From positions 71,296 to 135,295 of the forward strand of contig JBAZYN010000003.1 in NCBI GenBank assembly GCA_041659325.1: a stretch of 64,000 nt of DNA, written 5' to 3'. Positions 3,358-61,949 of this stretch are shown here, in pieces (within the stretch, counting starts at the first letter, position 1; every line of letters begins with the position of its first letter). Made by a program: the position numbers and the translations under genes. The DNA comes from Candidatus Shapirobacteria bacterium. GTDB taxonomy: Bacteria; Patescibacteriota; Microgenomatia; UBA12405. The notes under the pieces were generated by a model. The model searched no databases. It saw only the letters and a list, made by a program, of their open reading frames with translations, and was not told the origin of the DNA.

Positions 3358-5151
3358 CTACCTTTTTTGGGACTGAAAAGCAGCAAGTTTTGCAAGTAGC
3401 TGGTTGTACTCGGACTCGATGCTTTTTAAATCGACTTCATCGTCTGAGTTTTCACTATTGGCAATAACCGTACTGAGATTGTTTAGTTTATCCTTTAAAT
3501 AGATAATATTCAACTGGCTGATGGTCTTTTTTATTTCCCGGGTTTTTTTGCCGGATTCGAAGTTTTGAGACTCGGCGGCAATGAAAAGACTTTGAAAAGT
3601 ATCCCTAATTTCGGGCGGAAGAGTATCGCGGAAGGTTTTGGGGTCAAATTTTTTGGTTTTTTGCAGGGTATCGGCGATGGTTTTGAAGCGGGGGGTGTCA
3701 AAAAGGGAGAGATCGGCGGCGTGTTTTTTGGCGACTTTGGAGGGATCCCGGCAGGAAATAATGAGAATTAAAAGAATTTCTTCCAGTTTTTCTTTTTTGG
3801 GAGGACCGGAGGGAGTGGCTGATACGGGAGCGGAAACGGTGATATTGGACTTGGAGTATGAGCTATATTTGGCCGACTCGGCAACCACGGCCTCTTCTTT
3901 GGAGCCGACACGGTTTGCCAGTTTCCCCAAATAATCGGATTTGGTAACAGCGTCGGAAATTCGGGCTAAAAAGGGCAGGACGGCGGCCATAATTTGGCTC
4001 TTACCGCGGGAAGTGGCAATACCAAAATTTTTGATACTGGAGTCTATAATAAAATCCCAGATAGGCACGGCCTTGGAAAGCCTGGAACGGAAAAAATCGG
4101 GATCGGCCTTGACGGCCTCGTCGGGATCTTTGTATTTGCCTTCTAGATCAATTACCCGGATGTCAAAACCGAGATTATCGGCCAATTCAATGCTTTTTTT
4201 GGCGGCATTGTTGCCGGCGAAATCAGAATCAAGACCAAGAATAAGGGTGTCGGTATAACGTTTGAGAAGTTGGAGCTGATCCTGGGTAAAGGCAGTACCT
4301 TTGAGAGCGACAATGTTTTGGATACCTATCTGGTAGGGAGAGATCATATCAAACTCCCCTTCGACGATGACAACTGAGGATTTGGTTCTTATGGCTTCTT
4401 TGGCTAAATTAAGGCCAAAAAGCATTTGGCTTTTGTGATAAATTTCGGTTTCGGGAGAGTTTATATATTTGGCCATGTTTTGATTGGGGGCGAAAGGGAG
4501 AATCCGGCCGGAGAAGCCCAAAACCCGGTCGCGATAATCGGTGAGAGCAAAGGTGAGGCGGCCCTGAAAGCGGTCGTAGAAACCGCCTGATTTGTACTGA
4601 CTTTGGCCGAAGGTACCGGTGGATAAAAGCTCCCGGATGGTATAACCCTTTTTTTGAAGAAAATTGGCTATGAGCCTGGAATCGGTGGGGGCAAAACCAA
4701 TTTGAAATAGCTTGATTGATTCCCTTGTTACCCCTCTGTCTAAAACATAATCAAGGGCCTTTTGGCCCAGAGGATGGGATAAAAGAATATAGTTGTAGAA
4801 TTTGGCAACGTGGCTGTTGATTTCGATGAGGATTTTTTTGGCGGCTTCTTCGCGACTGATATCCTCATTTTGTTGGAGTTTTACCCCAGCGATTTTGGCC
4901 AGCTGCTCGAGAGATTCGCGAAAAGATATGTGCTCGTATTCCTGCAAAAAAGTAAAGGCATCACCGGCTTTGCCGCAACCAAAACATTTGAAAATTTGTA
5001 GCTCGGGAGAAACTAAAAACGAAGGGGTTTTTTCACCATGAAATGGACAATTGGTGACATAGTGGCGGCCCCTTTTTTTTAGCGGTAAATATGCGGATAT
5101 TACATTGACAATGTCTATTTTTTGCTTGATTTCGTCGACCTGATTTTCCAC
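3358..5151 (-). CDS. dnaG: DNA primase DnaG
   Basis: CHC2 zinc finger [11 protein letters not shown]...[15 protein letters not shown] region EGEFDMIS...[10 protein letters not shown]; dnaG-rpoD macromolecular-synthesis operon order. Confidence 0.95.
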
Positions 5152-5169
5152 TGAGTAATTGTAGCATTC

Positions 5170-5325
5170 AAACCCTAACCCTACCCTTTCCCTTGACAGG
5201 GCAAGGGATAATTGAAATCAAAACATCCCCCTGCCTGCCGGCAGGCAGGGATTGCCACGTCGTTCCACTCCTTCCGCCAAAGGCGGAGAAGCGCAATGAC
5301 GGGTAAGAAGCAATGACGGAAGGGG
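5170..5325. repeat. Mosaic palindromic repeat block (cccttgacagggcaaggg; ccctgcctgccggcaggcaggg; gattgccac-hairpin-cgcaatgacgg)
   Basis: Perfect palindromes; the same modules recur at 10370, 23942, 37862, 34590, 37880 and 61985. Confidence 0.8.
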
Positions 5326-5369
5326 TTAACTGAATACGAGGAGGAGGTCATTTGGTTGAAACCCATCTA

Positions 5370-5726
5370 TTATGCCTGAGTGACAATATCCGCTAGCGCC
5401 TGGCAACCATCTCTTTCTGGACTATTATAATTTGCTCTAAGAATAGGCTGTCCGTCTTTAGTGTGGGAAATAATGGTTACTTCGTTTCCGATCTGTTTAC
5501 GAATTTCGCTTGCGACGGCTTGTCCATCTCGTCTACTAGTGCCCAAATTATCAGCCACAATTACAACTGCCCGTTCAGGAATACGAGGAATTAGCGCTAA
5601 AGCTTTTTCTAGGGAATCTGCAGTTTCACGAACACTGTGACCATTTCTTTCTAAAGTAGCTCTGGTTATTTCTATTTGATCGGGATTACGTTTGATAAGA
5701 TAAGTTTCTGCGTGAGACGGTGACAT
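5370..5726 (-). CDS. hypothetical protein
   Basis: 118-aa ORF, good coding look; no motif recognised. Confidence 0.45.
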   Translation of the reverse strand: MSPSHAETYLIKRNPDQIEITRATLERNGHSVRETADSLEKALALIPRIPERAVVIVADNLGTSRRDGQAVASEIRKQIGNEVTIISHTKDGQPILRANYNSPERDGCQALADIVTQA

Positions 5727-5821
5727 GTATTGGTATGATACAAAAAGATGGTGGTAAAAGCAAGAAAGGGACCGAAGGTGGGGAGAGACAAATAATTTTG
5801 TAATCAGTAATCGGTAAGAAA

Positions 5822-5932
5822 GGTTTAGCCGAATTCGAGAATGAGTCCGTGCAATCCAAATCCCTCTTTAATTCTCCCTTTGACAAGGGAGAACATTGAT
5901 TATTGCCAGGGGAGGGTTTAGCCGAATTCGAG
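5822..5932. repeat. 75-bp insert carrying module aaatccctctttaattctccctttgacaagggagaac, flanked by 18-bp direct repeats ggtttagccgaattcgag (5822-5839 and 5915-5932)
   Basis: The second DR copy is the last 4 codons plus stop (LEFG*) of the permease gene. The first copy is an orphan duplicate distal to the insert. Confidence 0.8.
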
Positions 5933-7000
5933 TAATAAACCAAAAGTAAGAGATACAAAGATAAGAACTGCAAGAAGGAAGGTGACAGGTCGGGGATTGA
6001 TTCTTAGGCGGATGGCGCAAATCATGAGAGCAGAAACATATATGGTGATGGCGCCGGTAAGAGAAATTACCTGGATGAAGGGGACGGAAAATAGAAAAAG
6101 GCTAAGAAATGGAATAGCCAGGGGAAGAATTTGCGAAACAGGTTTTGAGAGACGGAAGTCACGATAAAAGAGCTCACGGAAGACTAAGAGAAAATTGAGA
6201 GAAGCTTCGTAGGTAATTAGAAGTCCAAAAACCGCCAGGCATCTCCCCAACCAGGGAGAGACTTTGAAGATGCCTGTGATCGAATCTACGGACAGAGAAA
6301 AACCGCTAAGCCGAATAACGGAAAAACTGAAAATTAAATAAATTAGTGAAACTAAAAGCAAACCGATAAGGGAGGCCAGGACGGTGTGTTTGGATTTGTC
6401 GGGCTGACCGCGAAAAAGCTCCTCTATTTCGGGAATTATAGTAAAACCACTGAGGGCAAAAATAAGAGAACCGAAAAAAGAAAAATTGGGGACAACCGAG
6501 CTGAGAGCCGGAGGAAGAGCTTGCAGGGCGGCAGAGAGAATTAGAAGAGGAACAAGAAGGATGGCGATGGGGATAATGTTTTCCAGGCGGCGGATGAGAT
6601 CGAAACGGTAGAGATGGCTAAAAGCCAGCAGAATTATGAAAATCACTGAGGCGGCAAAAAGCGGAATATAGGGGAAAAGAATGACTAAAAAATTTGAGAA
6701 AAGCTTGATATAAGCAATGGTGGCACCAAGACCGAGCAGAAGAATATTGAGGGAGGCAAGAGTTTTGAAATTTTTGCCAAGATAGATTTGGGCGTAACCG
6801 GAAAACTGATGATCCCCGGCCGTGTTTAAAACAACTTCGAGATAAAAGTAATTTATGAAACCGGAGACGATGGTGAGAATTCCCAAAAATATCAGAGAAA
6901 AATAAAAATCCGATTTGTAAAAAAGATAAGGCAGGGCGAAAATTCCGGCGCCGACAGTGCCGTAAAATTGGAGAAAGACGGCCTTTGAAAAGCGGGACAT
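5918..7000 (-). CDS. amino acid permease-like membrane transporter
   Basis: 10-12 TM helices; N-terminal GTVGAGIFALPY motif typical of amino-acid transporter families. Confidence 0.6.
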   Translation of the reverse strand: MSRFSKAVFLQFYGTVGAGIFALPYLFYKSDFYFSLIFLGILTIVSGFINYFYLEVVLNTAGDHQFSGYAQIYLGKNFKTLASLNILLLGLGATIAYIKLFSNFLVILFPYIPLFAASVIFIILLAFSHLYRFDLIRRLENIIPIAILLVPLLILSAALQALPPALSSVVPNFSFFGSLIFALSGFTIIPEIEELFRGQPDKSKHTVLASLIGLLLVSLIYLIFSFSVIRLSGFSLSVDSITGIFKVSPWLGRCLAVFGLLITYEASLNFLLVFRELFYRDFRLSKPVSQILPLAIPFLSLFLFSVPFIQVISLTGAITIYVSALMICAIRLRINPRPVTFLLAVLIFVSLTFGLLLEFG

Positions 7001-7400
7001 TGGTTAAGTATAGAGTCTAAAAGTCTTAAAGTCGAAAGTCTAAAGTTTAAAGCCAGCATAAACAAATTAATAATTAACAATTAACAGATTTGTATCTGTA
7101 ATCGGTAATCAGTAATTGGTAATTAGTAATCTGTAAACTGTAATTAGCCTTAGCTGTAAGCGAGTGCACTAAATCCCTCTTAAAATTTCAATTTGTCCCG
7201 CCCGTCGGACAGGCAGGAGCAATCTTAAAACAACTCTACTATTTCAATCCTGTAAGGATTGCTTCGTCGCCTGAAAGGCTTCTCGCAATGACGGGGGCGG
7301 AAGATTGCCACTCCTTCCCTTCAACTATGTTCAGGGCAAGCCCTTCGACAAGCTCAGGATAAACTAGCTCAGGGTCGCAATGACGGGGAAAAGGGAAATT
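7001..7400. repeat. Composite intergenic repeat region (9-mer tandem gtctNaaag units, GTAATN hexamer array, palindromic modules)
   Basis: atagagtctaaaagtcttaaagtcgaaagtctaaag (compare 61960-62080); gtaatcggtaatcagtaattggtaattagtaatctgtaa; block 7300-7390 matches 1-60 and 59940-60000. Confidence 0.8.
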
Positions 7401-7436
7401 AAGAATTTAAAAAAACAAAAAACCAGGAAAGCTCTA

Positions 7437-7560
7437 ATTTCCCTCGAAGCGGCGGTGGCGGCGGTTGAACTCGATGGCGGCGTCGACAATTTTTGAGGGA
7501 TTAAAATCGGGGAAATGATCTTTTTCAAAATAGAATTCGGCATAGGCGTAATTTATAAAA
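7437..7560 (-). pseudogene. Duplicated 3' fragment of uppS (last ~36 codons plus stop)
   Basis: ~108 bp (7441-7548) about 93% identical to 8300-8407; translates to ...YAYAEFYFEKDHFPDFNPSKIVDAAIEFNRRHRRFEGN*. Confidence 0.85.
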
Positions 7561-7567
7561 ATATCGA

Positions 7568-8284
7568 TTAGTGGTGGAAAAACTGACGGACGGAAAGAAG
7601 TAGATAGTTAGTGGCAGCCGAAACGAATAGGATGCCCTGCAATGCCTTGTTTGTGAGGGACTTTTCGCCTTTTTCTGTCCCGGGGGTGTTTGGATCGATT
7701 AGCTTTATACCTTCTTGGGTTTTGAATAGATTATTGGAGTGGCGGAGAGAAAAAACAGCCCTGTCGACGATAAAAAGAAGTGACATCTTGTCGGGGACAC
7801 TTTCGTCCCTTCCGATTAAATCGTAATTTACTCCATATCTTAAATAGCATTTCATTGAATCGAATAAAATACATCTAAGCTGTGTGATATCGGCAGGCGG
7901 TAAACTCAAAATCCCCTTTAGCCCGAGTTTATTAAGAGGAGTACCTTCGACAAACTGCTGTATTCGGGCAATCCGGCTTGTCCCGGGAGCAGTACCCCCA
8001 ACAACCAGATAAGATTGAGCGACTATGGATTGTCTGGCTTGTTCCCCTGCGGTCCTTAACGTCAACTCTTCCAGAGTCCGTAATTTTTTTGCTTCGTTCC
8101 AAGCCTGATGCGGAGTATGGTCCCAAAAATTGTCCTTGGCGACCTTGACCACTACACCTTGGCCACTATCCGGAAGATAAACATTGGTTGATTTAGATTC
8201 GGTAGTGTTGTGATGATGATTCAAGTCAAACGGTAATCCCTGAGTATCAGACGAACGGTCGATCGACATATCTGATGATATCAA
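7568..8284 (-). CDS. hypothetical protein (inserted between uppS and its duplicated 3' end)
   Basis: 238-aa ORF; His-rich N-terminus; no motif recognised; begins 4 bp after the uppS stop. Confidence 0.55.
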   Translation of the reverse strand: MISSDMSIDRSSDTQGLPFDLNHHHNTTESKSTNVYLPDSGQGVVVKVAKDNFWDHTPHQAWNEAKKLRTLEELTLRTAGEQARQSIVAQSYLVVGGTAPGTSRIARIQQFVEGTPLNKLGLKGILSLPPADITQLRCILFDSMKCYLRYGVNYDLIGRDESVPDKMSLLFIVDRAVFSLRHSNNLFKTQEGIKLIDPNTPGTEKGEKSLTNKALQGILFVSAATNYLLLSVRQFFHH

Positions 8285-8290
8285 AATTTG

Positions 8291-9019
8291 TTAATTTCCC
8301 CCGAAGCGGCGGTGGCGGCGGTTGAACTCGATGACAGCGTCAATGATTTTTGACGGATTGAAATCGGGGAAATGATCTTTTTCAAAATAGAATTCGGCAT
8401 AGGCGTTTTGCCAGGACATGAAGCCCGATAGGCGCTGTTCACCGGAGCTGCGGATAATAAGATCGGGATTGGGATAGGGCTGATTTTGCAGATTGAGATA
8501 TTTGTCGATCAACTGTTGATCGACTTTGTCCGGACTGATTTTGTCGGCGACAATGGCAGAAACAACGCGGGTAATTTCGTCTTTGCCGCCGTAATCGAGG
8601 CATATATTGAAAACATGATCGGTAAAGTGAGCGGTGTCGGCTTCGGCTTTGGCGATAGCTGAGGCCAAACTTTTGGGAATACGGTCTTTACGGCCACGGT
8701 GGATAATTTTTACTTTTTCTTTTTTGGCGGAGTCAATTTGTTTTTTGAGAAAAAGCTCGTAGAGCTTCATGAGATAGGCAATTTCTTCTGCTGACCGGTT
8801 CCAGTTTTCGGTGGAAAAACACCAGACGGAGACGGTGTGAACGCCGATTTCCCAACAAGCTTCGGTAACTTCAACAGCGGCATCAAAACCCTTTTTGTGG
8901 CCTTCGAGGGTATACATGCCCCTGGCTTTGGCCCAACGACGGTTACCATCGGGAATTATGGCGATATGGTGGGGAATTTCTGAATTTTCAGGCAAGGAAA
9001 GATTCCATTTTGATTTCAT
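8291..9019 (-). CDS. uppS: undecaprenyl diphosphate synthase (isoprenyl transferase)
   Basis: HIAIIPDGNRRWA motif; ...RRHRRFGGN C-terminus. Confidence 0.9.
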   Translation of the reverse strand: MKSKWNLSLPENSEIPHHIAIIPDGNRRWAKARGMYTLEGHKKGFDAAVEVTEACWEIGVHTVSVWCFSTENWNRSAEEIAYLMKLYELFLKKQIDSAKKEKVKIIHRGRKDRIPKSLASAIAKAEADTAHFTDHVFNICLDYGGKDEITRVVSAIVADKISPDKVDQQLIDKYLNLQNQPYPNPDLIIRSSGEQRLSGFMSWQNAYAEFYFEKDHFPDFNPSKIIDAVIEFNRRHRRFGGN

Positions 9020-9048
9020 TAAAGATTACGTCGGATAAAATTATAAAA

Positions 9049-10167
9049 TCATTCCGAGGCTTTGCGGAGCTTGGTTATTTTGAATAGATATGGAGAGACA
9101 ATATAGAGAACTTCGAAAGTGGCCACCGATAACTCGAAGGCACTGGGAATGTTGCTAGTAACGATATATGCGCCGATACCAAGAATGACGGCGTTTTTGA
9201 AGGTTTGATCCATCTTGATTTTGTAAACTTTGTTGATTGCCTCTTGAGCGATAGAGGCTTTTTGGGCGGTATCGGAAGCTTTGGCGGCGCCGGTATAACC
9301 AGCGTGGTAGGTTGTGAGAAATGTACCAATGGCGGTGATTAGATTCATGGTACTGTTTTGACGGGTCAAATCCGCCATAAGAGTAACCCCCTGAAAGGAG
9401 GTGGGGAGGTGACGAAGGATAATAGTGGAGAGGATAAAAAGAGTGCCGCTGAAACCACCAATTTTTAGTAACATCCGGTTGTAGTTGATGCGGGCGGAGA
9501 GAATTTTTTTATTGCGCGAAAAGATAAATTTGACAAGGCGCCAAAGAAACCGGCCGAGAACGAAAAACAAAGTCATACCAAGCCAAATTTTGGCGATGGT
9601 TAACCAATCAAGGGCATAACTTTCGGTGACTTTGAAAAAAGGGAGGCGGAAGTCGGTGCCGCGAAGAGGATAGTCGGGATATTTGACGAAATCATAGAGG
9701 AGTTTTGGATCAAGGGGGGTGTTGTAAAAATCGATAAGAAATATCCGGCCGGCGGAAAAGAAGGCAATAGCATTGACAATAAAATTGAAAACATAAAAGA
9801 CGATAGTGGCATCTCCCTTTCTTATCTTTTCGGTAAAGACGAAGTACTGGTCATTTTCTTTGGTATTTTCCAGTAGTTCCTCGAAGACTTTGAGCCTGGT
9901 GTCGAAGAAGTCACCTAAAAGACGGAGAGGCATAAAAGCAAGATTTTGGATAACACCGATAAGGAGGACGGAAACCCAGATTTGGCCGGTAAAGTTGTAA
10001 AGGGTAAAAAAGATACTGGCGTACAAACGAAAGCTGCCGCCGCGGAAAAACCAGATAAAAATGGCAAAAAGAAAAATTATGAGGGCGGAAGTAAGGAGTG
10101 GCAGCCAGAGACGGCTGTTGTCGATATTCCTGATTTTGGAGATTGATTGGTCGCTACCGGTATCCAC
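9049..10167 (-). CDS. hypothetical polytopic membrane protein
   Basis: Multiple TM helices; no secure motif (YidC-like not confirmed). Confidence 0.4.
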   Translation of the reverse strand: MDTGSDQSISKIRNIDNSRLWLPLLTSALIIFLFAIFIWFFRGGSFRLYASIFFTLYNFTGQIWVSVLLIGVIQNLAFMPLRLLGDFFDTRLKVFEELLENTKENDQYFVFTEKIRKGDATIVFYVFNFIVNAIAFFSAGRIFLIDFYNTPLDPKLLYDFVKYPDYPLRGTDFRLPFFKVTESYALDWLTIAKIWLGMTLFFVLGRFLWRLVKFIFSRNKKILSARINYNRMLLKIGGFSGTLFILSTIILRHLPTSFQGVTLMADLTRQNSTMNLITAIGTFLTTYHAGYTGAAKASDTAQKASIAQEAINKVYKIKMDQTFKNAVILGIGAYIVTSNIPSAFELSVATFEVLYIVSPYLFKITKLRKASE

Positions 10168-10174
10168 TATGTGA

Positions 10175-10258
10175 TTATAACGAATTACGAATTAATAATT
10201 ACGAATTACGAATTATCAGGTAATCTGTAATTGGTAACCGGTAATCGGTAACCAGCTC
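10175..10258. repeat. GTAATN / AATTAC hexamer tandem array forming a long imperfect hairpin
   Basis: attacgaattaataattacgaattacgaatta...ggtaatctgtaattggtaaccggtaatcggtaacc. Confidence 0.75.
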
Positions 10259-10261
10259 AAT

Positions 10262-10421
10262 TAAATCCACCCCTATCCCCTCCTTTGAAGAAAGGAGGGG
10301 CACTACTCGTCATTGTGAATGAATAGAGGGAATGTGACGATCTCGTGTTTCTTGCCGTAAACCATGCCTGCCGGCAGGCAGGGATTGCCACTCCGCCAGT
10401 TGGCGGATCGCAATGACGGGG
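10262..10421. repeat. Rep135 composite element, copy 1 (carries an extra ccctgcctgccggcaggcaggg module)
   Basis: aaatccacccctatcccctcctttgaagaaaggaggggcactactc...gattgccactccgccagttggcggatcgcaatgacgg; other copies at 34454, 46075 and 49861, plus a partial at 30056. Confidence 0.85.
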
Positions 10422-10472
10422 TATGGAAGAAGTACTGGCTGAAAGGGCGAGTTTGACTTATACTTTGTAAGT

Positions 10473-10826
10473 ATGGCAGAAAATAAAGAAAGACTGGGGG
10501 TAGGTGAAATCGGCGGGAAGCAAGAGACGAGAATGGTGGACGTGGAGACAGCGGCCAGAGCACCATTGCCACGGGAAGTGGAATCGTGGATGGAAAAGGT
10601 GGAAAAAGACCAGACGGTGCAGAAAATTGTGAATGATGACAGGACAGGACAACCGGTGATGACACCGACAGCACCGACGGATCCGGTGATTCAACTACCG
10701 ATAACGAGAGGTACTTTTGCGGCAGGCTTTGGCAAGGCAATAAGCGATGCCGGAAGGTGGCTATCGGTTTTTATTTTCAGAGTGATTAAAATTAAGAAAG
10801 GAAAAGTTAAATTTAAAGACGAATGA
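10473..10826 (+). CDS. hypothetical small protein upstream of, and overlapping, the VirB4-like ATPase
   Basis: 117 aa, hydrophilic with a hydrophobic C-terminal tail; 4-nt overlap with the next start (ATGA). Confidence 0.5.
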   Translation: MAENKERLGVGEIGGKQETRMVDVETAARAPLPREVESWMEKVEKDQTVQKIVNDDRTGQPVMTPTAPTDPVIQLPITRGTFAAGFGKAISDAGRWLSVFIFRVIKIKKGKVKFKDE

Positions 10827-13156
10827 ACCCGGAAACTATTATCAGCCTGGTGACATCAATAATTGTATTTGCATTTATCGGGACGTTGGTGATCCTGCTT
10901 TTGGGATTTTTGGGGTATTTGCTGGTTTTAAGGTATAGATGGAGAGACAGAGAAGCCAAATCACTTGGGATGGTGACGCTGATGGTAGCAGTACCACAGG
11001 ATAATGAGATAAAAATTGATGCCATGGAGCAGATAATTAGCTCGTTTTCGACCATGTACAAAAGCGCCAAGTTTAAATTTTTGCAAACCTATGTAGCCCA
11101 ACCCAATTTATCGCTAGAGATTGTGGGAACGGCGCAAGACATTAGGTTTTATATTTGCACACCGAAAAAACTTCAGGATTTGGTGGAAAAACAGGTTTAT
11201 AGTGTTTATGCCGGGGCTGACGTAAGACAAGTGGATGAGCCAAATATATTTACTGAGGATGGGAAAGTGGAATATGTATGGTTGGCACTAAAAAAGCTGC
11301 CGCATTACCCTTTGAAAACATATAAGGAAATTCCGACTGACCCAATGGCGGCTGTAACTTCGGCTTTGTCAAAACTAAGTACCGGGGAAACGGTGGCGAT
11401 ACAATTGGTACTTTCGCCGACTGACGGCAGTTGGGCAAAGGCGGGGAGAAGCTTTATCAGCAGTACTAAAAAGTCGGAGGCAAACCCGGAGAAGGCCTCG
11501 TATAAAGTGGATGCAAGACAACTGGAGGCGGTGGAGAATAAGGCGGGAAGACAGGGCTTTGAAACGGTAATAAGGATAGTGTCGTGTGCCCCGAGCAGCG
11601 AGGTTGCGAAATTAAATATTTCGAATATTAAGGCATGCTTTGGCCAATTTGAATCACCGTGGAATAAACTGTCGTCTAAAAAAATGTATCTTAAGTCATT
11701 TTTTGTGGATGATTTTATCTATAAATATCCGGTGGTGTATTGGTTTAAAAACAAGACCATATTGTCGACAGATGAGATTGCATCGATTTTTCATTTTCCC
11801 AACAAATCTATTGAAACACCAAATATTTACTGGCTGAAAGCAAAAAAGGCACCGGCGCCGAATGAGGCTGTGCAGGAGGGGCTGTATATAGGCGACAACG
11901 TGTATCGAGGGATAACTAAAAAAGTGTGTATGACAGCATCGGACCGGCAAAGGCATTTTTATATCGTGGGACAAACAGGGGTGGGTAAATCGTGGCTTTT
12001 GGCAGACATGGCGCTACAAGATATTAAAGCCGGGAAGGGGGTGTGCTTTATTGATCCGCATGATACGTTTGAAAGCATATTGGAGAGGATTCCACCGGAG
12101 CGGGTGGAGGATGTGATTTATTTTGACCCGTCGATGGTGAACCGGCCGATGGGCTTTAATGTGATGGAATGTGAGAGAGAGGACCAGAAAGATTTTGTGA
12201 CTAGCTCGATTATTAACCTAATGTATAAACTGTATGATCCTTATAAAACCGGAATTGTGGGACCTAGGTTTGAACATGCAATAAGAAACATTATGTTGAC
12301 GGTGATGGCAGAGCCGGGGGCGACATTTATCGAGATTGTCCGGTGTCTGACCGATCCGACTTATGTGCAGGCAATGCTACCAAAGGTGAACGACCCGATG
12401 GTAAAAAGATATTGGACTGATCAAATCGCCCAAACTTCGGATTTTCATAAATCGGAGGTGTTGGACTATATCGTGTCAAAATTCGGCCGATTTATTACCA
12501 ACACGATGATGAGAAATATTATCGGGCAGTCGACGTCGTCGTTTAACTTTAGAAAAGCCATGGATGAGGGGAAAATATTGATTATTAATTTGGCCAAAGG
12601 GACAATTGGCGAGGAAAATTCGGCCTTTTTGGGATTGGTTTTAATCCCCAAAATTTTGATTGCGGCCATGAGCCGGCAGGATACGCCAGAGGCGAACCGG
12701 AAGGATTTTTATTTGTATGTGGATGAGTTTCAAAATTTTGCCACCCAGGATTTTGCCGTAATTTTGTCAGAAGCCAGAAAATACCACCTTAACTTGATCG
12801 TGGCCAACCAATTTATTTCACAGATGGATGATGAGGTAAAAAATGCCGTTTTCGGAAACGTAGGTACAATTTCGACTTTTAGGGTGGGAGTGGCCGATGC
12901 AGGGTTCTTGGTGCGGCAGTTTCAGCCGGAATTTAACGAACATGACCTTTTGAACCTGGGAACGGGAGAAATTTATATGAAGACAATGCTTAACGGTGTC
13001 CCCCAGTCACCATTCTCGGTGCGGGTGGCGGCGGTGGAAAAGAAAAAACCGGGGAACCCGAAACTGGCGGAGATGATAAAGCAGCTGTCGTCGATGAAAT
13101 ACGGCAGACCGAGAGAGATTGTGGAAGCGGAAATTGCCAAGAGAGCGAGATTCTAG
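10823..13156 (+). CDS. VirB4/VirD4-superfamily (T4SS/conjugation-type, AAA_10/DUF87-like) P-loop ATPase with an N-terminal TM helix
   Basis: Walker A GQTGVGKS near aa 385, Walker B FYLYVDEFQNF near aa 630, N-terminal TM; this architecture and motif spacing resemble VirB4/TrbE. Confidence 0.6.
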   Translation: MNPETIISLVTSIIVFAFIGTLVILLLGFLGYLLVLRYRWRDREAKSLGMVTLMVAVPQDNEIKIDAMEQIISSFSTMYKSAKFKFLQTYVAQPNLSLEIVGTAQDIRFYICTPKKLQDLVEKQVYSVYAGADVRQVDEPNIFTEDGKVEYVWLALKKLPHYPLKTYKEIPTDPMAAVTSALSKLSTGETVAIQLVLSPTDGSWAKAGRSFISSTKKSEANPEKASYKVDARQLEAVENKAGRQGFETVIRIVSCAPSSEVAKLNISNIKACFGQFESPWNKLSSKKMYLKSFFVDDFIYKYPVVYWFKNKTILSTDEIASIFHFPNKSIETPNIYWLKAKKAPAPNEAVQEGLYIGDNVYRGITKKVCMTASDRQRHFYIVGQTGVGKSWLLADMALQDIKAGKGVCFIDPHDTFESILERIPPERVEDVIYFDPSMVNRPMGFNVMECEREDQKDFVTSSIINLMYKLYDPYKTGIVGPRFEHAIRNIMLTVMAEPGATFIEIVRCLTDPTYVQAMLPKVNDPMVKRYWTDQIAQTSDFHKSEVLDYIVSKFGRFITNTMMRNIIGQSTSSFNFRKAMDEGKILIINLAKGTIGEENSAFLGLVLIPKILIAAMSRQDTPEANRKDFYLYVDEFQNFATQDFAVILSEARKYHLNLIVANQFISQMDDEVKNAVFGNVGTISTFRVGVADAGFLVRQFQPEFNEHDLLNLGTGEIYMKTMLNGVPQSPFSVRVAAVEKKKPGNPKLAEMIKQLSSMKYGRPREIVEAEIAKRARF

Positions 13157-13291
13157 GAAAAAACCCTTCCGTCCCGACTAAAGTCGGGACACCTTCCCTT
13201 GACAGAGCAGGCTAATACAAATTTATAATTCCTTAAGGCGGATGCCTTGCAATTTTTCTTTGGCTTCGATAAGCGGAAAATTTTTTCCTGA
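13157..13291. repeat. 135-bp insert flanked by an 18-bp direct repeat of the VirB4-like gene terminus (caagagagcgagattcta at 13138-13155 and 13292-13309)
   Basis: Contains hairpin gtcccgactaaagtcgggac and a ~60-bp segment (13215-13282) about 80% identical to the 3' end of the recombinase gene at 14182-14245. Confidence 0.75.
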
Positions 13292-13347
13292 CAAGAGAGC
13301 GAGATTCTAAGGGGGAATTTAAGAATTTTATTCGCCTACCCTATTTA

Positions 13348-13734
13348 CTAGGATTTTGGCCTTGAGTCGGAGAGACTTTGGGAATCAGGGTTTGTAATAT
13401 CTCGTGAAAAGACCTTAACTCTTCCCGAAATTAAACGGGCAATGCACTTGGATGGTTGTCCTTTTGTGTTTAAAAGGTAGAGATCGACTCTTTCTGGAGC
13501 TAACCGTGTGGCAGCGAAAGTGCCCGGGTGGTTCACTGCATACTGCTCGGCCATATTTGTCAGACCACTATTTGCAACCGAGCAAATTGTGCCGGGATCG
13601 GCGCCCCGATTGGCGATACCGCACATACCAATGTTAAACCCGCCTGGAATCCGATAACATGGATTCCCCGGATAAAAACAATAGGTATACAGTAATTGCA
13701 TTGGTGGAGTAACTTTTCTTTCTGGATCAGCCAT
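13348..13734 (-). CDS. Cys-rich small protein, paralog 1
   Basis: GMCGIANRGADPGTICSVANSGLTNMAEQY aligns to GLCGVSTPQDKGRTFCGRAENGLTTMANSY of the neighbouring ORF. Confidence 0.6.
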   Translation of the reverse strand: MADPERKVTPPMQLLYTYCFYPGNPCYRIPGGFNIGMCGIANRGADPGTICSVANSGLTNMAEQYAVNHPGTFAATRLAPERVDLYLLNTKGQPSKCIARLISGRVKVFSRDITNPDSQSLSDSRPKS

Positions 13735-13785
13735 ATTTTTATTTTATTTTTAAATTTATTATTCTTTTAATTTAATGTGGATGGA

Positions 13786-14163
13786 TTACCGGGTGATTTC
13801 TGGTATCGGAATCTGTTCTTTATTGTTGATGACTCTGCCTGAACGCAGTGTGGCTAACGTAGTAACTCGGTCATGACCAGCGACGGTACAAAGATCGACT
13901 TCTGTATCGTTTACGACAAATGCCGCTACGGGGAGAAGACCTAAATCTTGTCTGTGTGCGGCAAGGTAACTATTGGCCATTGTCGTTAGGCCATTTTCTG
14001 CACGGCCACAGAATGTCCTGCCCTTATCTTGGGGTGTGGAAACACCACATAGACCAATATCTTTATCTCTAAGACAGGCTGTCAATTTAAAACAAGCAGG
14101 AGTTGCTAAAATAACCGTTTTAGTTTGGTCGCCCGTTTTTGCTTCTGGTGAACCATTGGGCAT
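13786..14163 (-). CDS. Cys-rich small protein, paralog 2 (start codon 18 nt after the recombinase stop)
   Basis: Paralogous to 13348-13734; co-transcribed with the recombinase. Confidence 0.6.
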   Translation of the reverse strand: MPNGSPEAKTGDQTKTVILATPACFKLTACLRDKDIGLCGVSTPQDKGRTFCGRAENGLTTMANSYLAAHRQDLGLLPVAAFVVNDTEVDLCTVAGHDRVTTLATLRSGRVINNKEQIPIPEITR

Positions 14164-14181
14164 ATATTTTATTAATAAAAT

Positions 14182-15051
14182 TTATAATTCTTTTAATTTG
14201 ATGCCTTTGGATTCTTCTTTGGCTTCGATAAGCTCCATGTATTTTTCGGTGGTGGAAATGCGCTTGTGACCGACAATTTGGGAAACTACGTCGATGGGAA
14301 CGCCGGATTTTAATTGAAAAGCAATAAAAGTGTTTCGCAAGTCATTGACTTTGATACCCTTGATGTCGGCCTTGTTGAAATAGCGATTTAATAAACTTCT
14401 GATGTTACGGGCTAGAAGGTGACGGCCGGTTTTGGTAACAAAAACGCTTTTGGATTTGCTGTTGTAACGACCTTCATCGAGATATCTTTTTAGAGCTGAT
14501 TTGGCGGAATTGTTTAGAGGAACAGTGCGGACACTGTGACTTTCGTATGAGTCGATGATAATTTCATTGTCTTTGATGTTTTCCAACTTTAGATTTTCGA
14601 TTTCTTTGATCCTTAGACCGGCTTGAAGCATCAGCTCGACAATGGCGGTGGACCGGGCATCATTTCGGCAGGCGTCGCGCAGAGACCGGTATTCAATTGG
14701 TTTTAAAATTTTGGGGACATCATTTTCGTACTTGGGATGTTTTATTTCGGTGGAAGGATCGACAGAGATGAGGCCTTCATTTTTTAAAAAGGAAAAGAAA
14801 TTTTTGATGGAGTTTAGTTTTCGACTGACTGACTTGGCGGTATAGCCGTTTTTCATTAAATCTTTTTTGAAGTTGTCAATATCGGTGCCACGAACGGCAT
14901 CAACTCCGGTGATTTTTGACTGGGCCTTTAAAAAGTGGATCAGCTGATTAATATCACCTTTGTAGGCTACAATGGTGTTTGTGGACTTACCTTTTGTTAA
15001 AAGAGATTTGGTAAAAAGATCCAAGGTGGATTCAAGGGATAGATCGGGCAT
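14182..15051 (-). CDS. tyrosine site-specific recombinase, XerC/XerD-like
   Basis: C-terminal catalytic signature HSVRTVPL...LRNTFIAFQLKSGVPIDVVSQIVGHKRISTTEKYMEL (R..HxxR..Y); 289 aa. Confidence 0.85.
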   Translation of the reverse strand: MPDLSLESTLDLFTKSLLTKGKSTNTIVAYKGDINQLIHFLKAQSKITGVDAVRGTDIDNFKKDLMKNGYTAKSVSRKLNSIKNFFSFLKNEGLISVDPSTEIKHPKYENDVPKILKPIEYRSLRDACRNDARSTAIVELMLQAGLRIKEIENLKLENIKDNEIIIDSYESHSVRTVPLNNSAKSALKRYLDEGRYNSKSKSVFVTKTGRHLLARNIRSLLNRYFNKADIKGIKVNDLRNTFIAFQLKSGVPIDVVSQIVGHKRISTTEKYMELIEAKEESKGIKLKEL

Positions 15052-15123
15052 GTTGTTTATAATAGTTTACAAATAATGACTTATAGTACCATTATTAGGG
15101 ATAATATACAATATATGTAACCG

Positions 15124-15429
15124 ATGAAATTAATAAGTAATATTTTATTTGGCCTGGGACTGGGGATAATGATAATCTTGAGTCTGGGCAACGTGTGGAG
15201 ACAATATTCCCTTTTGAGGGAGGCAGGGAAAGAAAATAAGGCGCTGGAGGATAAGGTAAGTAGTTTGCAGGATGAAAATAGAAAACTTTTGAGAACTATT
15301 GATTATGCTACCAGTAGCGCTTTTATGGAGAGACAAGCAAGGATACTACTGGGAGTGGGAACCAGTAGGGATTTTTGGATAAAAGGCCTTAAGGAGAAGA
15401 AATACACTGATGAGTTTTTGACTAGATAA
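15124..15429 (+). CDS. septum formation initiator (FtsB/DivIC family)
   Basis: N-terminal TM, coiled coil LEDKVSSLQDENRKLLRTI, MERQARILLG motif. Confidence 0.6.
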   Translation: MKLISNILFGLGLGIMIILSLGNVWRQYSLLREAGKENKALEDKVSSLQDENRKLLRTIDYATSSAFMERQARILLGVGTSRDFWIKGLKEKKYTDEFLTR

Positions 15430-15472
15430 TGCCGATTTTATGTGCTAGAATCCAACAGTCGAATCAGCAACA

Positions 15473-15542
15473 TGCGGGGTAGTGTACGGCTGCACGTGAG
15501 GCTCATAATCTCACAGGCCGGGTTCAACTCCCGGCCCCGCAA
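15473..15542 (+). tRNA. tRNA-Met (CAU), initiator-like
   Basis: tgcgggg...ggctcataatctcac...ggttcaactcccggccccgca; closely resembles E. coli tRNAfMet (CGCGGGG...GGGCTCATAACCC...GGTTCAAATCCGGCCCCCGCAACCA); CCA not encoded. Confidence 0.75.
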
Positions 15543-24733: not shown

Positions 24734-25903
24734 ATGGAAATAATCAAAATTAACGACAGTTACGAAGAAATTATTAAAAGGACGGCTGAAACGATAAGGG
24801 GCGGCGGACTGGTGATATTCCCATCGGATACGGTATATATTTTGGCGATGGATCCGACAAATGTTGATGCGACAAAGAAACTTTTGGCGTTTAAAAACCG
24901 CTGGGTGGGAAAGGCAATTTCGGTGGCAGTGGCGGATACTAAAATGGCCAAAGATTATGTAGAACTATCGGAAAACGCTGAAAATATATATGCTAACTTG
25001 CTACCCGGACCATTTACGGTAGTAAGCAAGGGAAAACATAAAATGGCGAGCGGGATTGAGGCGGAAAACGGGACTTTGGGGATAAGAATCCCCGATAACA
25101 AATATATTCACGATTTGGTGACAGCCATTGGGAAACCGGTAACGGCGACATCGGCTAATCTGTCGGGGCGGACACCGCATTATTCTATCGAGAGCTTTTT
25201 GAAAACATTGTCGCAGAAAAAGAGGGACATGATTGATTTGATCGTTGATGCGGGGAAACTGCGGTTTAATAAGCCGTCGACAGTTATTGATGCCACTGAG
25301 CCGGAAATCAAAATTTTGAGGCGAGGCGACCTGATTACTGCTAATTCTAAAACTTTGATATCCAAATCGGAAAAGGAAACGGGGAAGATTGCGGAGTTTA
25401 TATTGAATAAATCCCTAAATCAAAATCTACCCCTATCCCCTCCTTTGACGAAAGGAGGGGCACTGCCATTAGTATTTGGACTGAGTGGAGATTTGGGATG
25501 CGGAAAGACAGTGTTTTCGAGGAGTGTGGGGAAAATATTGGGGGTTAAAGAAAAAATCACTAGCCCGACATTTGTGATTATGAATGAGTATGATATCAGT
25601 CTGAAAGTCCAAAAGTCTGAAAGTCTGAAAGTTGGACAGCCGGTTAGTCTGAAAGTCCAAAAGTCTGAAAGTCTGAAAGCCGGGAAGTTTTTACATTTTG
25701 ATTTGTATAGAATCGGAGGCCAGTTTGAATTGGAAGAAATAAAATTTTGGGAACAGTTCAAACCGGGAACCGTGGCTTGTATTGAGTGGCCGGAAAATAT
25801 GGGAAAGGAAAATTTTGAGAAATTGAAAAAGATGACGAATTATAAGGCAATAAACTTTGAATATGTGAACGAGAGAACAAGAAAGATAAGTTATGAGATG
25901 TAA
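24734..25903 (+). CDS. L-threonylcarbamoyladenylate synthase (TsaC/YrdC domain) fused to tRNA t6A protein TsaE
   Basis: YrdC domain ...VTATSANLSGR...; TsaE P-loop GLSGDLGCGKTVF, SPTF, HFDLYRI; two in-frame repeat insertions in the TsaE half. Confidence 0.85.
   Translation: MEIIKINDSYEEIIKRTAETIRGGGLVIFPSDTVYILAMDPTNVDATKKLLAFKNRWVGKAISVAVADTKMAKDYVELSENAENIYANLLPGPFTVVSKGKHKMASGIEAENGTLGIRIPDNKYIHDLVTAIGKPVTATSANLSGRTPHYSIESFLKTLSQKKRDMIDLIVDAGKLRFNKPSTVIDATEPEIKILRRGDLITANSKTLISKSEKETGKIAEFILNKSLNQNLPLSPPLTKGGALPLVFGLSGDLGCGKTVFSRSVGKILGVKEKITSPTFVIMNEYDISLKVQKSESLKVGQPVSLKVQKSESLKAGKFLHFDLYRIGGQFELEEIKFWEQFKPGTVACIEWPENMGKENFEKLKKMTNYKAINFEYVNERTRKISYEM
25423..25463. repeat. Palindromic module aaatctacccctatcccctcctttgacgaaaggaggggcac inserted in frame in tsaE
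   Basis: Same module opens the Rep135 copies; encodes NQNLPLSPPLTKGGAL just before the TsaE P-loop. Confidence 0.9.
25598..25679. repeat. 9-bp tandem repeat (agtctgaaag/gtccaaaag units) inserted in frame in tsaE
   Basis: Encodes LKVQKSESLKVGQPVSLKVQKSESLKA between EYDIS and GKFLHFDLYR; the same unit family is intergenic at 7003-7050 and 61960-62080. Confidence 0.85.
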
Positions 25904-29783: not shown

Positions 29784-29784
29784 T

Positions 29785-47424: not shown

Positions 47425-48339
47425 TTACTGCATTTCCTCGGAGATGGGCTTCACACAAACTAGACCTCCGGCGCAGGTGAGATTAACGGTTTGGTACTGA
47501 CCGGGATCCGGATTGTAGTTGGTGCAGAAAGCGCCATTGCCGGAACAAGTATAGGTGGGAGCCGGAGTGGAGGTGGGTCTAGTGGTGGGAACAGCGGTAG
47601 GAATAGGCCTGATACAAACCAGACCTGAGGCACAGGTAAGATTTAGGGTTTGATACTGACCGGGGTTTGGATTGTTGTTTGAGCAGAAAGCGCCATTGCC
47701 GGAACAAGTATAGGTGGGAGCCGGAGTGGAGGTGGGTCTAGTGGTGGGAACAGCGGGAGAAATAGGCCTTATGCAAACTTGATTATTGGCACAAGTTAGA
47801 TTAAGAGTCTGATAATTAGTGGAATCCGGATTGAAGTTGGTGCAGAAAGCGCCATTACCGGAACAAGTATAGGTGGGAGCGGAGGTGGGCCGGGTGGTGG
47901 GGACAGCGGGCGGAGTATCGCCACAAGCGGAACCACTACAGACACCGTTTTTGCAGGAAAGACCTGAACGACAACCAAACCAAGAAGTGCATCTTTGGCC
48001 GCAGCTACCACGAGAAGAATTGGTGGGATTTATTTTACAGATTATATCGGTATACCGATTGCGATAGGTGGAATCTTGGTGACAGGGGGAACTAGCGTCC
48101 CGACCGGAAGTGTAGCTATATGTCTGAGAGGGAGAACCTGAACAATTTGTATTGCTAGCATTATAAACAGAAACACGGCAGCTGTATTGAAGAGCGGCCT
48201 GATTTTCGACAACACGGCGTTGACCGATATAGCGTATCCCGGCGAAGAGACCGAGAGCGGTGACAACTAAACCAGTGAGGACAGCAACCTGGGCAAGGCC
48301 GGATTGCATTTTTTTTGTGGAAAAAGCGTTTATAACCAT
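47425..48339 (-). CDS. secreted Cys-rich protein with three ~46-aa tandem repeats
   Basis: TM/signal; 3x (AVPTTRPTSTPAPTYTCSGNGAFCTN.NPDPGQYQTLNLTCA.GLVCIRPI); ~138-bp nucleotide tandem repeats. Confidence 0.75.
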   Translation of the reverse strand: MVINAFSTKKMQSGLAQVAVLTGLVVTALGLFAGIRYIGQRRVVENQAALQYSCRVSVYNASNTNCSGSPSQTYSYTSGRDASSPCHQDSTYRNRYTDIICKINPTNSSRGSCGQRCTSWFGCRSGLSCKNGVCSGSACGDTPPAVPTTRPTSAPTYTCSGNGAFCTNFNPDSTNYQTLNLTCANNQVCIRPISPAVPTTRPTSTPAPTYTCSGNGAFCSNNNPNPGQYQTLNLTCASGLVCIRPIPTAVPTTRPTSTPAPTYTCSGNGAFCTNYNPDPGQYQTVNLTCAGGLVCVKPISEEMQ

Positions 48340-60050: not shown

Positions 60051-61949
60051 TTAGAGAGAAATTTTGTAGATTTTTTGGTCGGAGCAGAGGACAAAAATTT
60101 GATTGGTTTTTTCATAAAAAACCAGGTCGAGGATTTTGAGGTCACCGTAGTTGTAACTACTTTTGTATTTACCTGTTTTGTCGTAGACATAGACGATATT
60201 GTCGTTGTCGGAAAAGACTATGGTTTCGGAATCGGTACCGATATTTAAATGGGCGGTTTTGGTGAGGGCGGAAACAGATTGGAGGGCAAAATTTTCTTTG
60301 ACACCACGAGTGTAGGCGGTGAGACGACCGGAAGCTGATAAAACCCAAACCTTGCCATTGATGGCGAGATTTGTTGAATCACTATCGAGGGACTCCCCTG
60401 CTTTGAGCCATGACTGTGGCGGCCCAAAAACCGAATCGGCGGGGGTTGATTTCCAAATAGAAGAATTGGCCGGATCAAGAAGATAAAGAGCGTTAGTCCA
60501 GAAATAAAGGCTAACGGGTTTGGTCGGTTTCGGAGAGGTGGTGATTTTCGAGAAAGCGAGCACTTCCGGTGAGCCGGTTTTGGTTATTTGAAAAACACCG
60601 GTTTCGGTAAGGGAAAATAATTTGCCTTCACTTACAGCAAAAGCCAATCCTTTGTTGATATCTTTGTCCTGTGAAAAGACGGAATTGTTTCTGTCGGGGA
60701 TTTCGACACTGTCTACCCGACTGGCGGCTGAGTCAATAATCAACAAAGAATCTCTGCTTAGCAACATACGGGAATACTGGGGGCTGTCGACAATAACGCC
60801 ATTGTCGGCGTAAAACTCGGGTTTGTACTCTGAGGCAGAACCAGATTGGGAGAGAATTTGAGTGATGTCCTGTTTATATTTTTCAACCTCCTGAGGGTGG
60901 ATTTTTAGGGCAGAAATTTTGTCCAAAATCGACTGGGCGTTTCTGGCTTCCTTGATGGCATCTTCGAGATTCATGTTTTTTACGGCAAGAGAATTGGCAA
61001 TCCGGGATTCTATCTCGGTTTTTAATTGCTGATACTGGGCTTCCTGTGATTTTTGGCGGTTTTGGACAAATCCATAGTACGAACCGGCGCCGAGGGCGAT
61101 TAATATAAAAACGGCGACGATATTGTTGATTTTGGTGCGGTGCTTTTTGACACTACTTTCCTGACTAGAGACAAAAATTGGCTTGGGCGAGAAAAACTTT
61201 TTAAAAAAGCCGGGGTTAATTCTTTTAGGGGTGAAACCCGATTTGACTTGAGGGAATACTTTTGGGGACGGGGGCGGGTTGTCGACGGGGGGTTTGGCGG
61301 TAACTTCGGGAAGAGAGGGGATGGTATTTTCATCGTCTGAAATGATTTGAACTATAACGGCCGAGGCACCTGACTGGTCGTCCAAAGAATAAAGCTCGGA
61401 GAGAAAATTTTCTTCGATATTTTGAATTTTGGTGTCGGAAATTATATTTTTGATTTTTTCCCAGGTTATTTTTTGCTGAAATATTTTGGTAGAAAGAAGG
61501 ACTTTGTCGCCGGAGGTAATTTTGCCGGAAATTATTTTGGTATTGAAATCGTTGATGTCCAGTAACCGGCTGATTTGCTGACCCCGACTGAGAGTGCAAA
61601 CTCCTGATTTGCAAACACCCGTATGTAGGGTATCCTGATGGACAATGACGAGAACTAGATCGGTGATGATATCCGACAAAGAGCTTTTGGCCACCGACTC
61701 TAAACAATACTGAAGCGAGGCATCGACTTGATCGTGGGGGGAAGAATAATAAAATTGATTGATTTCGGAAATTATGGATTTACCTGTTTTGATAATTTCC
61801 GGGTCGATTTCGGGAGTTGAGATGTTTAAGAGGCCGAAAAGGTGGCCTCTTTTTGAGGCAACTGAAAAATCATCTGATTCGTTTTCCCAAAATTGGGCCC
61901 AATTGTTGGCGTTGTGTTTTCCGATAAATGACCGACAGATGAAATGCAT
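60051..61949 (-). CDS. hypothetical large protein (cytoplasmic N-terminal domain, one TM, coiled coil, extracytoplasmic beta-rich C-terminal domain)
   Basis: 632-aa ORF; TM IVAVFILIALGAGSYYGFV. Confidence 0.55.
   Translation of the reverse strand: MHFICRSFIGKHNANNWAQFWENESDDFSVASKRGHLFGLLNISTPEIDPEIIKTGKSIISEINQFYYSSPHDQVDASLQYCLESVAKSSLSDIITDLVLVIVHQDTLHTGVCKSGVCTLSRGQQISRLLDINDFNTKIISGKITSGDKVLLSTKIFQQKITWEKIKNIISDTKIQNIEENFLSELYSLDDQSGASAVIVQIISDDENTIPSLPEVTAKPPVDNPPPSPKVFPQVKSGFTPKRINPGFFKKFFSPKPIFVSSQESSVKKHRTKINNIVAVFILIALGAGSYYGFVQNRQKSQEAQYQQLKTEIESRIANSLAVKNMNLEDAIKEARNAQSILDKISALKIHPQEVEKYKQDITQILSQSGSASEYKPEFYADNGVIVDSPQYSRMLLSRDSLLIIDSAASRVDSVEIPDRNNSVFSQDKDINKGLAFAVSEGKLFSLTETGVFQITKTGSPEVLAFSKITTSPKPTKPVSLYFWTNALYLLDPANSSIWKSTPADSVFGPPQSWLKAGESLDSDSTNLAINGKVWVLSASGRLTAYTRGVKENFALQSVSALTKTAHLNIGTDSETIVFSDNDNIVYVYDKTGKYKSSYNYGDLKILDLVFYEKTNQIFVLCSDQKIYKISL

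Follow-up and report, generated by a model that had tools for sequence, protein, structure and literature searches.

The 3' end of uppS, the gene for undecaprenyl/polyprenyl diphosphate synthase, is duplicated in a lineage of 'Candidatus Shapirobacteria', and a single open reading frame (ORF) of 238 amino acids (aa) is inserted between the two copies. The locus lies in a 64-kb stretch of DNA (hereafter the window) from one metagenome-assembled contig, and all genes around uppS are on the minus strand. The two uppS tails are sister copies, the distal one shows decay, the site is empty in relatives, no recombinase or transposon features accompany the insert, and the model of its product has a protein-kinase-like fold. 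The most probable explanation, to which we give a probability of about 0.55, is that the structure is the scar of one old insertion-duplication in this lineage, produced by a homologous exchange within the uppS tail together with an illegitimate join.

Duplicated uppS 3' end and the empty site

The uppS gene (8291..9019, minus strand) encodes 242 aa, ends with TAA and is intact. Its product matches Pfam PF01255 (Prenyltransf) with an E value of 1.4e-71 over positions 1-219 of the 219 in the profile, and is 100% identical to the NCBI protein 'polyprenyl diphosphate synthase, Candidatus Shapirobacteria'. A repeat-family search of the window (family D12) and self-BLAST (E 5e-42) identified a direct repeat of 115 nucleotides (nt) between 7435-7549 and 8292-8406. 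The copies are 857 nt apart and identical at 107/115 positions (93%), or at 107/116 when the third base of the stop codon is included. Among the two-copy repeats of the window that include a conserved coding 3' end, it is the longest. It contains exact runs of 46 and 32 nt, whereas block shuffles gave 0-5 exact 13-mers at the same spacing.

The proximal copy, R (8292..8406, minus strand), consists of the functional last 37 codons of uppS and the first two bases of its stop codon. The C-terminal RFGGN is kept in this copy and in 13 of the 14 relatives listed, the other one (P0004) ending with RFGK. The distal copy, R' (7434..7549, minus strand), consists of 37 codons and TAG and is a displaced, promoterless pseudo-fragment of the uppS 3' end. 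It is translated as AYAEFYFEKDHFPDFNPSKIVDAAIEFNRRHRRFEGN with the stop codon at 7436-7434, no 5' part of uppS accompanies it, and its reading frame differs from that of the 238-aa ORF. The repeat identity, the exact runs exceeding those in shuffles and the still translatable distal copy confirm the duplication. A preliminary description of this locus had reported a repeat of ~93%, a UppS C-terminus with a stop in the distal copy and a sole same-strand ORF between the copies. Its coordinates were correct within a few bases, and the other two points hold as well.

Only the ORF is present between the copies (8284-7568, minus strand), with margins of 7 nt on the proximal side and 18 nt on the distal side. 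It starts 6 nt past the uppS stop codon. The 18-nt junction TCGATATTTTTATAAATT (7550..7567, minus strand), between the ORF stop and the distal repeat, has no counterpart in any of three relatives (L098, L081 and L097, introduced below) and is a novel non-homologous joint. Minus-strand terminator or promoter signals between uppS and the distal copy do not exceed chance. The new gene is presumably co-transcribed with uppS.

Several relatives have an informative gene order. L098 (JGI Ga0247841_10029175), recovered by a metagenome scan with UppS, and the second relative, L081 (from SRR22315508), both have a UppS 85% identical to that of the window. A third relative, represented by L096 and L097, is at 68%. 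The scan of genome contigs with UppS returned only matches of at most 47% identity, mostly from Peregrinibacteria, which are of no use for synteny.

In L098, the order is membrane protein gene, uppS, a 192-nt spacer and a gene for a 360-aa permease, without the ORF and without a second uppS tail. The distal copy in the window and the spacer behind it are colinear, module by module, with the uppS end and the spacer of L098. The modules common to the two spacers are CCCGTCATTGCGA, GCAATC and TTAATTnTTAATTATTAATT. An identical 41-nt sequence, CTTTCGACTTTAAGACTTTTAGACTCTATACTTAACCAATG, precedes the permease ATG in both, and it holds a promoter-like site (7035-7007 in the window). In L097, the permease N-terminus is found 7 nt past the uppS stop (46% identity over 35 aa, E 2e-8). 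In L081, the uppS stop runs directly into the spacer module CCCCGTCATTGCG, and there is no ORF. On the other side of uppS, L096 carries an orthologue of the window's membrane protein (61% identity, E 7e-36).

Since the site is empty in L098, L097 and L081, the ancestral order is uppS, spacer, permease. Since the relatives have neither the ORF nor the duplicate, the insertion is specific to the lineage of the window. The gain in this lineage is 857 nt, comprising one repeat copy and 742 nt of unique DNA. The comparison of occupied and empty sites, by which insertion-duplication is recognized, therefore gives a direct repeat of the target segment around DNA that is absent in the three relatives. 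The preliminary description had proposed such a synteny comparison for its insertion at the uppS 3' end, and the outcome agrees with it: uppS is followed by the spacer or the permease in L098 and L097.

The flanking genes in the window retain this ancestral arrangement. The membrane protein gene (9049..10167, minus strand, 372 aa) is the conserved upstream neighbour of uppS, with orthologues in L098 and L096. The spacer (7001..7433, minus strand, 434 nt) is the ancestral one between uppS and the permease; it is made of short palindromic repeat modules and ends in a conserved promoter-like box. The permease gene (5918..7000, minus strand; Pfam Trp_Tyr_perm) is the ancestral downstream neighbour.

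History of the two copies and the route of insertion

Substitutions were polarized against three outgroups. R and R' differ at 9 of 116 positions. R differs from L098 at 16 positions and from L081 at 15, while R' differs from them at 20 and 18, respectively. The distance between R and R' is thus roughly half of that between R and L098. Derived states common to both copies and unlike the outgroups are the G in a GTC/GCC codon and GGA-AAT in place of GGC-AAC. Because both copies carry states unseen in the outgroups, R and R' are each other's closest relatives. Therefore, the event took place inside this lineage and is old, and the duplicated segment had no distant donor.

The distal copy is on the longer branch to both close outgroups. 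Four changes are assigned to its branch, namely I>V, V>A, G>E (RFGGN>RFEGN) and one synonymous change. One synonymous change is assigned to the proximal branch, and all other differences are ambiguous and synonymous. Judged from these substitutions, the distal copy appears to be an unconstrained, decaying relic and the proximal copy the working gene end. The dN/dS between the copies is ~0.2 by hand count (3 replacement and 5 synonymous changes), which are too few to distinguish two constrained copies from one decaying copy.

The mismatches on the coding strand are T/C, G/C, C/T, A/G, T/C, T/C, T/C, G/A and A/G. A diversity-generating retroelement resembles this locus in having a ~100-nt repeat of which one copy is a gene 3' end. 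It was rejected, as the mismatches are of mixed type and not adenine-specific, and no reverse transcriptase domain is encoded among the neighbours.

The favoured reading would proceed as follows. From the order membrane protein, uppS, spacer, permease, a ~740-nt piece with the single kinase-like gene would have been joined right behind the uppS stop codon after DNA uptake. One recombination joint would lie within the last 115 nt of uppS and would be a homologous exchange. The second would be illegitimate, at the 18-nt joint upstream of the distal copy, between TATAAATT and ACGCC. The exchange could have been a single crossover (Campbell-type integration) of a small circularized fragment. Homology-facilitated illegitimate recombination (HFIR) of a linear fragment from a close relative would give the same structure. 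The outcome would be an intact uppS, a new gene 6 nt behind its stop and a displaced, functionless uppS tail gathering replacements. The new gene may have been retained by selection.

A single homologous exchange with an illegitimate joint is favoured because of the topology (repeat, unique DNA, repeat), the empty site, and the experimental and natural precedents. It is also supported by the content of the insert, which holds the ORF alone: terminal inverted repeats are absent, Pfam shows neither a recombinase nor a transposase, the window has no paralogue, and the composition is not anomalous. Elsewhere in the window, displaced 3' fragments of a tyrosine recombinase gene and a VirB4-like gene are fused head to tail at GCTT, a hallmark of an illegitimate joint.

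In Escherichia coli, single crossovers of circular molecules with partial homology leave an insert flanked by locus duplications of 109-950 bp, and HFIR uses one homologous anchor and 3-10 bp of microhomology at the other end (PMC3240628). The uppS locus is similar in that one exchange in a short segment leaves foreign DNA flanked by a direct duplication (PMC3240628). In HFIR, the microhomology at the second end is short or lacking altogether (PMC3240628). Unlike these laboratory events with engineered donors, the uppS event is natural and old, and HFIR usually deletes recipient DNA instead of duplicating it. HFIR has also been invoked for displaced 3' ends in Rhs loci and loci of type VI secretion systems (T6SS), where, in effector-immunity arrays, incoming DNA that is anchored in the conserved portion of a gene pushes the old 3' end downstream, and this end persists as an orphan (PMC5361080). 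In those arrays the new 3' end is a different toxin domain and the gene is diversified, whereas the two uppS ends encode one and the same sequence, and what is new is the additional gene that separates them.

Several observations weigh against the favoured reading. The donor state, uppS followed by the ORF without a duplicate, was not found, and 0/7 homologue contexts are next to uppS. A donor from a close relative that already had uppS followed by the ORF only shifts the first insertion one step back. No more than 1-2 nt of microhomology is seen at the uppS joint, while the analogous joint of the VirB4-like and recombinase fragments has 4 nt (GCTT). The perfect 18-nt duplications at the permease and VirB4-like genes described below are too short for an ordinary RecA-dependent crossover, and the cases may therefore not all share a single mechanism. 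Of the nine differences that separate R and R', seven fall within 27 nt (scan p ~0.01, with the window width chosen post hoc). This cluster is at repeat positions 47-73 (7462-7503 versus 8319-8360), the first 46 nt being identical, and a uniform decay of the distal copy does not predict it. Partial gene conversion involving R and R', or a substitution rate that varies locally, could account for it. Finally, the arrangement is known from a single assembly.

This last point, the metagenomic origin of the contig and the exact runs of 46 and 32 nt, which could tangle a de Bruijn graph, would fit a chimeric join of coexisting strains through shared uppS k-mers. Such an assembly artefact is very improbable. 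The 9/116 differences are patterned as pseudogene decay and not as strain-level identity, and the ORF meets the truncated uppS tail in a unique sequence, which some real molecule must contain. Both flanks are colinear with L098, and analogous structures are present elsewhere on the contig.

The main alternative is replicative template switching in situ, similar to microhomology-mediated break-induced replication (MMBIR) or fork stalling and template switching (FoSTeS), or the repair of a staggered break. Synthesis would have left at the uppS stop, copied ~740 nt ectopically and returned 115 nt behind the departure point. The repeat, the unique DNA and the second repeat would arise in one step from an unrelated source, and neither a circle nor a related donor with the same adjacency is needed. 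This fits the adjacency of uppS and the ORF, which is found nowhere else, and the sister relationship of the two tails. It also accommodates the perfect 18-nt duplications and the microhomology joint of the VirB4-like and recombinase fragments. But there is no convincing microhomology at either uppS joint, and the 64-kb window contains no second copy of the ORF as a template. Moreover, MMBIR/FoSTeS-like switching has been documented mainly in eukaryotes and in E. coli stress models, which counts against it here. We consider template switching unlikely.

The architecture is the same as that of icd, e14 and icdC in E. coli (PMC13626634). In e14 and phage 21 at icd, as at uppS, an intact gene is followed by an insert and a displaced, slightly divergent C-terminal segment with a stop (PMC13626634). 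Unlike e14, which is 15 kb long, has its own integrase and is excised site-specifically, the uppS insert is 742 nt with one kinase-like ORF and no recombinase. The two gene ends at icd are the host and phage versions, unlike the uppS tails, which are sisters within the lineage. An integrative element of the e14/icd type would encode an integrase or recombinase, and none is recognizable here: the only ORF that the repeats enclose matches nothing in Pfam, NCBIfam or PHROGs, and its predicted fold is kinase-like.

A related possibility is a remnant: a site-specific integrative element would have taken the uppS 3' end for its attB, brought a replacement 3' end along and later lost everything save one cargo gene. 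A tyrosine recombinase gene, whose own 3' end is duplicated, lies 6 kb away. However, the insert has no integrase or any other element gene and no phage or defence family match, and its composition is that of the host. Because the margins are just 7 and 18 nt, the element would have to have been deleted precisely on both sides, right up to the two att copies. Because both copies share lineage-specific substitutions, the 'replacement' end is not foreign. A remnant of this kind is therefore improbable, slightly more so than template switching.

A similar gene order is known from mobile ORFs of fungal mitochondria, such as that at Allomyces atp6, where the gene with a replacement 3' end is followed by the ORF and the displaced native 3' end. 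Those ORFs encode homing endonucleases that drive the insertion, whereas the ORF at uppS is kinase-like with no nuclease signature.

Other classes of mobile DNA were rejected. Unlike insertion sequences, transposons or miniature inverted-repeat transposable elements, the insert lacks terminal inverted repeats and a transposase, and the duplication of 115 nt is, to our knowledge, far above any known target-site duplication. For an integron gene cassette, there is no attC-like hairpin or inverted repeat in the 7- or 18-nt margins and no intI, and the neighbours are uppS and the permease gene. No structured RNA was detected in 5000-15500 (no Rfam match at E<=0.1).

The uppS locus is a minimal, recombinase-free form of the known displaced-3'-end scar. 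As a single scar it is of a well-documented type, and it shows that a single accessory gene can be gained downstream of an essential one while leaving the latter intact. It provides a clean, datable case with an empty site in Patescibacteria (candidate phyla radiation, CPR), whose routes of gene gain are poorly known. These bacteria are thought to rely on DNA uptake.

UppS homologues from Microgenomates are often 404-424 aa long (P0015, P0022 and ~60 others), with a helical C-terminal extension of ~170 aa without Pfam match, and the lineage of the window has the short form of 242 aa. On one contig (L091, 5001-8449), two modules of uppS and NUDIX are in tandem. The 3' side of uppS seems to be evolutionarily plastic in Microgenomates.

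The inserted gene and its family

The inserted ORF (7568..8284, minus strand) encodes 238 aa from TTG at 8284, or 233 aa from ATG at 8269, and belongs to an orphan family with a predicted protein-kinase-like fold. NCBI annotates the 233-aa version as hypothetical, from a metagenome-assembled genome of 'Candidatus Shapirobacteria bacterium'. A sequence search of 5.8e9 cluster representatives returned the self-match alone, word-indexed protein searches likewise returned only the query, and a metagenome scan gave no match. The family was reached only by an exhaustive hidden Markov model search, which found 14 cluster representatives among 1.84 billion. They are ~40% identical and, when complete, 212-250 aa long.

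The ORF has no Pfam match at the curated threshold and no meaningful NCBIfam, PHROGs or PADLOC match. One family member shows a weak match to Kinase-PolyVal (E 0.046, below the curated threshold). A profile search of PDB with the family gave no kinase match below E 0.1 and no sequence-level relative. The structure was modelled with AlphaFold2. From the single sequence, the predicted local distance difference test score (pLDDT) was 31 and the model unusable; with the family alignment, pLDDT was 83.5 and the predicted template modelling score (pTM) 0.81. In a Foldseek comparison of this model with PDB, all 46 of the 46 matches with E<=1e-3 were protein kinases, PknB and RIO2 included, at TM-scores of just 0.32-0.41. 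The model supports a protein-kinase-like bilobal fold, and the possible kinase-like fold suggested in the preliminary description gains support from it.

Residues invariant or nearly so in the family are K47 (VVK, strand 3), S183 and N185 (loop PLRNSxNL) and D197 (IKLID), and K47, N185 and D197 match the kinase core. The canonical catalytic-base Asp is missing: L180 is five residues before N185, and an invariant D155 lies in an inserted loop. The protein encoded in the window retains every family-invariant residue and is therefore predicted to be functional.

The GC content of the ORF is 0.446 and that at third codon positions (GC3) 0.448, the same as in the neighbouring genes, and a foreign origin by composition was thus rejected. 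No paralogue that could be a source copy was found in the 64-kb window by tblastn.

The contexts of seven homologues were examined; all are different and none adjoins uppS. One homologue is found after ftsH and before a 5'-3' exonuclease gene (L083), one directly after a class-I aminoacyl-tRNA synthetase gene (L087), and one overlaps the start of dus (L086). Others follow an ADK-like gene (L088) or a divergent gene (L084). The remaining two precede an uncharacterized gene, thermonuclease-like by eye (L082), and a Na/Ca exchanger gene (L178). Flanking direct repeats were not found at any of the six loci scanned. The preliminary description had named, as evidence against its reading, a homologue lying between uppS and the adjacent gene in distant lineages. 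No such case was found, the homologues occurring in the seven contexts above. Judged from these contigs, which look candidate-phylum-like, the family appears to be a patchy accessory gene without an address tag of its own. The locus thereby draws attention to a tiny, unannotated family with a kinase fold whose members change their gene context, at least on the CPR-like contigs examined.

Duplicated gene ends elsewhere in the window

Displaced 3' ends are not confined to uppS. The tyrosine recombinase gene (15051..14182, minus strand; Phage_integrase, E 4e-28) has its 3' end at 14233-14173, comprising ~50 coding nt and the stop, repeated 960 nt downstream at 13274-13213 (62 nt, 82% identity, E 5e-7). 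The two ends are translated as LIEAKEESKGIKLKEL and LIEAKEKLQGIRLKEL, each followed by a stop. Between them are two paralogous small ORFs of 125 and 128 aa, and a 22-nt piece of the recombinase end lies between these ORFs (13773-13752).

A perfect second copy of the last 18 nt of the convergent gene for a VirB4/TraG-like ATPase (13138-13155, ending with the second base of the stop) lies 154 nt downstream at 13292-13309. The displaced VirB4 fragment, ~31 nt long and carrying an 8-nt indel, directly joins its recombinase counterpart at the 4-nt microhomology GCTT. A tandem or Campbell-type duplication that arises by illegitimate joining should create one novel joint, and this fusion is that joint.

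The permease 3' end, CTCGAATTCGGCTAAACC (18 nt including the stop), is duplicated perfectly around a 75-nt insert (5822-5932). The insert contains a member of a five-copy palindromic repeat family (5850-5895). In L098, the permease end is present once. The end of the gene at 60051..61949 (AAATCTCTCTCTAA and CCCGTCAT) recurs at 58865-58844 (22 nt) and at 58115-58102 (14 nt), and plus-strand genes for 83, 234 and 204 aa lie between these repeats (58102-60064). It is probably a fifth, weaker case. The preliminary description had seen the same theme at the permease and VirB4-like genes; the perfect 18-nt duplications agree with this, and the recombinase gene and probably the gene at 60051-61949 extend it.

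As a control, exact repeats were counted that measure at least 15 nt, lie 40-1600 nt apart and span the stop of an ORF with 100 aa or more. The 64-kb window has 3 of them, while other candidate-phylum loci, 1.36 Mb in total, have ~8, with 6 more in a single repetitive locus. The excess concerns one contig and an informal, crude null. The recurrence at several gene ends hints at a lineage-specific bias of recombination or repair, and the excess is the most interesting aspect of the window.

The recurrence could also be produced by a dedicated, integrase-free mobile cassette, in which cargo and the 3' end of a gene as an 'address tag' would be excised through the direct repeats and, after DNA uptake, re-integrated by homology at the corresponding gene end of naive genomes. 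The duplicated ends around inserts at uppS, the tyrosine recombinase, the VirB4-like gene, the permease and probably 60051-61949 are consistent with it, as are the control (which is crude) and the patchy, context-free family of the inserted gene. However, no second instance of the tagged ORF was found, the homologues have no flanking repeats, the cargoes at the other loci are unrelated, and neither a circle nor a polymorphic site was observed. The distal copy is old and decaying, and there is therefore no sign of recent mobility. Such an element is quite improbable, ranking below the integrative remnant. The preliminary description had called the insertion cassette-like, and this part of it found no mechanistic support: the 742-nt insert has no integrase, attC-like hairpin, terminal inverted repeat or transposase, the homologues are not accompanied by duplicated gene ends, and the substitutions fit one old event, after which the distal copy decayed.

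In a broader form, it is conceivable, albeit doubtful, that this lineage adds genes without an integrase, as homology-addressed cassettes of a cargo and the last 20-115 nt of a conserved gene. If so, they would integrate by single exchange at gene ends, preserve the host gene and could be excised through the repeats, and such a route would explain at least four duplicated gene ends in 64 kb.

Several other repeats were observed in the window. Short repeat modules, many of which are palindromes with a TTGAnn loop, make up the intergenic spacers in a mosaic fashion. The modules include runs of GTAATnGGTAAT and AGTCTnAAAGTC, as well as CCCCTCCTTTGAnGAAAGGAGGGG, CTCCCTTTGACAAGGGAG, GCCTGCCGGCAGGC and GATTGCCAC...CGCAATGACGGGG. 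Examples are found at 5167-5311, 7040-7430, 10212-10430, 25405-25700, 29770-30060 and 34410-34720, and further ones at 37850-38010, 46050-46210, 48910-49130, 49840-50010 and 61950-62070. The module CCCGTCATTGCG frequently begins directly past a stop codon, in the window and in L098 and L081.

An identical 44-nt palindromic element, AAATCCCTCTCGGCTTCGCCGCTTCTCCCTTTGACAAGGGAGAT, is present at 21938-21981 and 28827-28870 in opposite orientations, within two housekeeping ORFs. The host genes encode a class-I aminoacyl-tRNA synthetase and TsaD, to which the element adds ~15 aa in frame (ISLVKGRSGEAERDL and KSLSASPLLPLTREM). It resembles the in-frame palindromic elements of Rickettsia. At 47444-47920, a 159-nt unit occurs three times in tandem (the copies being 100%, 87% and 69% identical to the reference) within an ORF of 304 aa (47425..48339), which probably encodes a repeat-containing Gly/Ser-rich surface protein.

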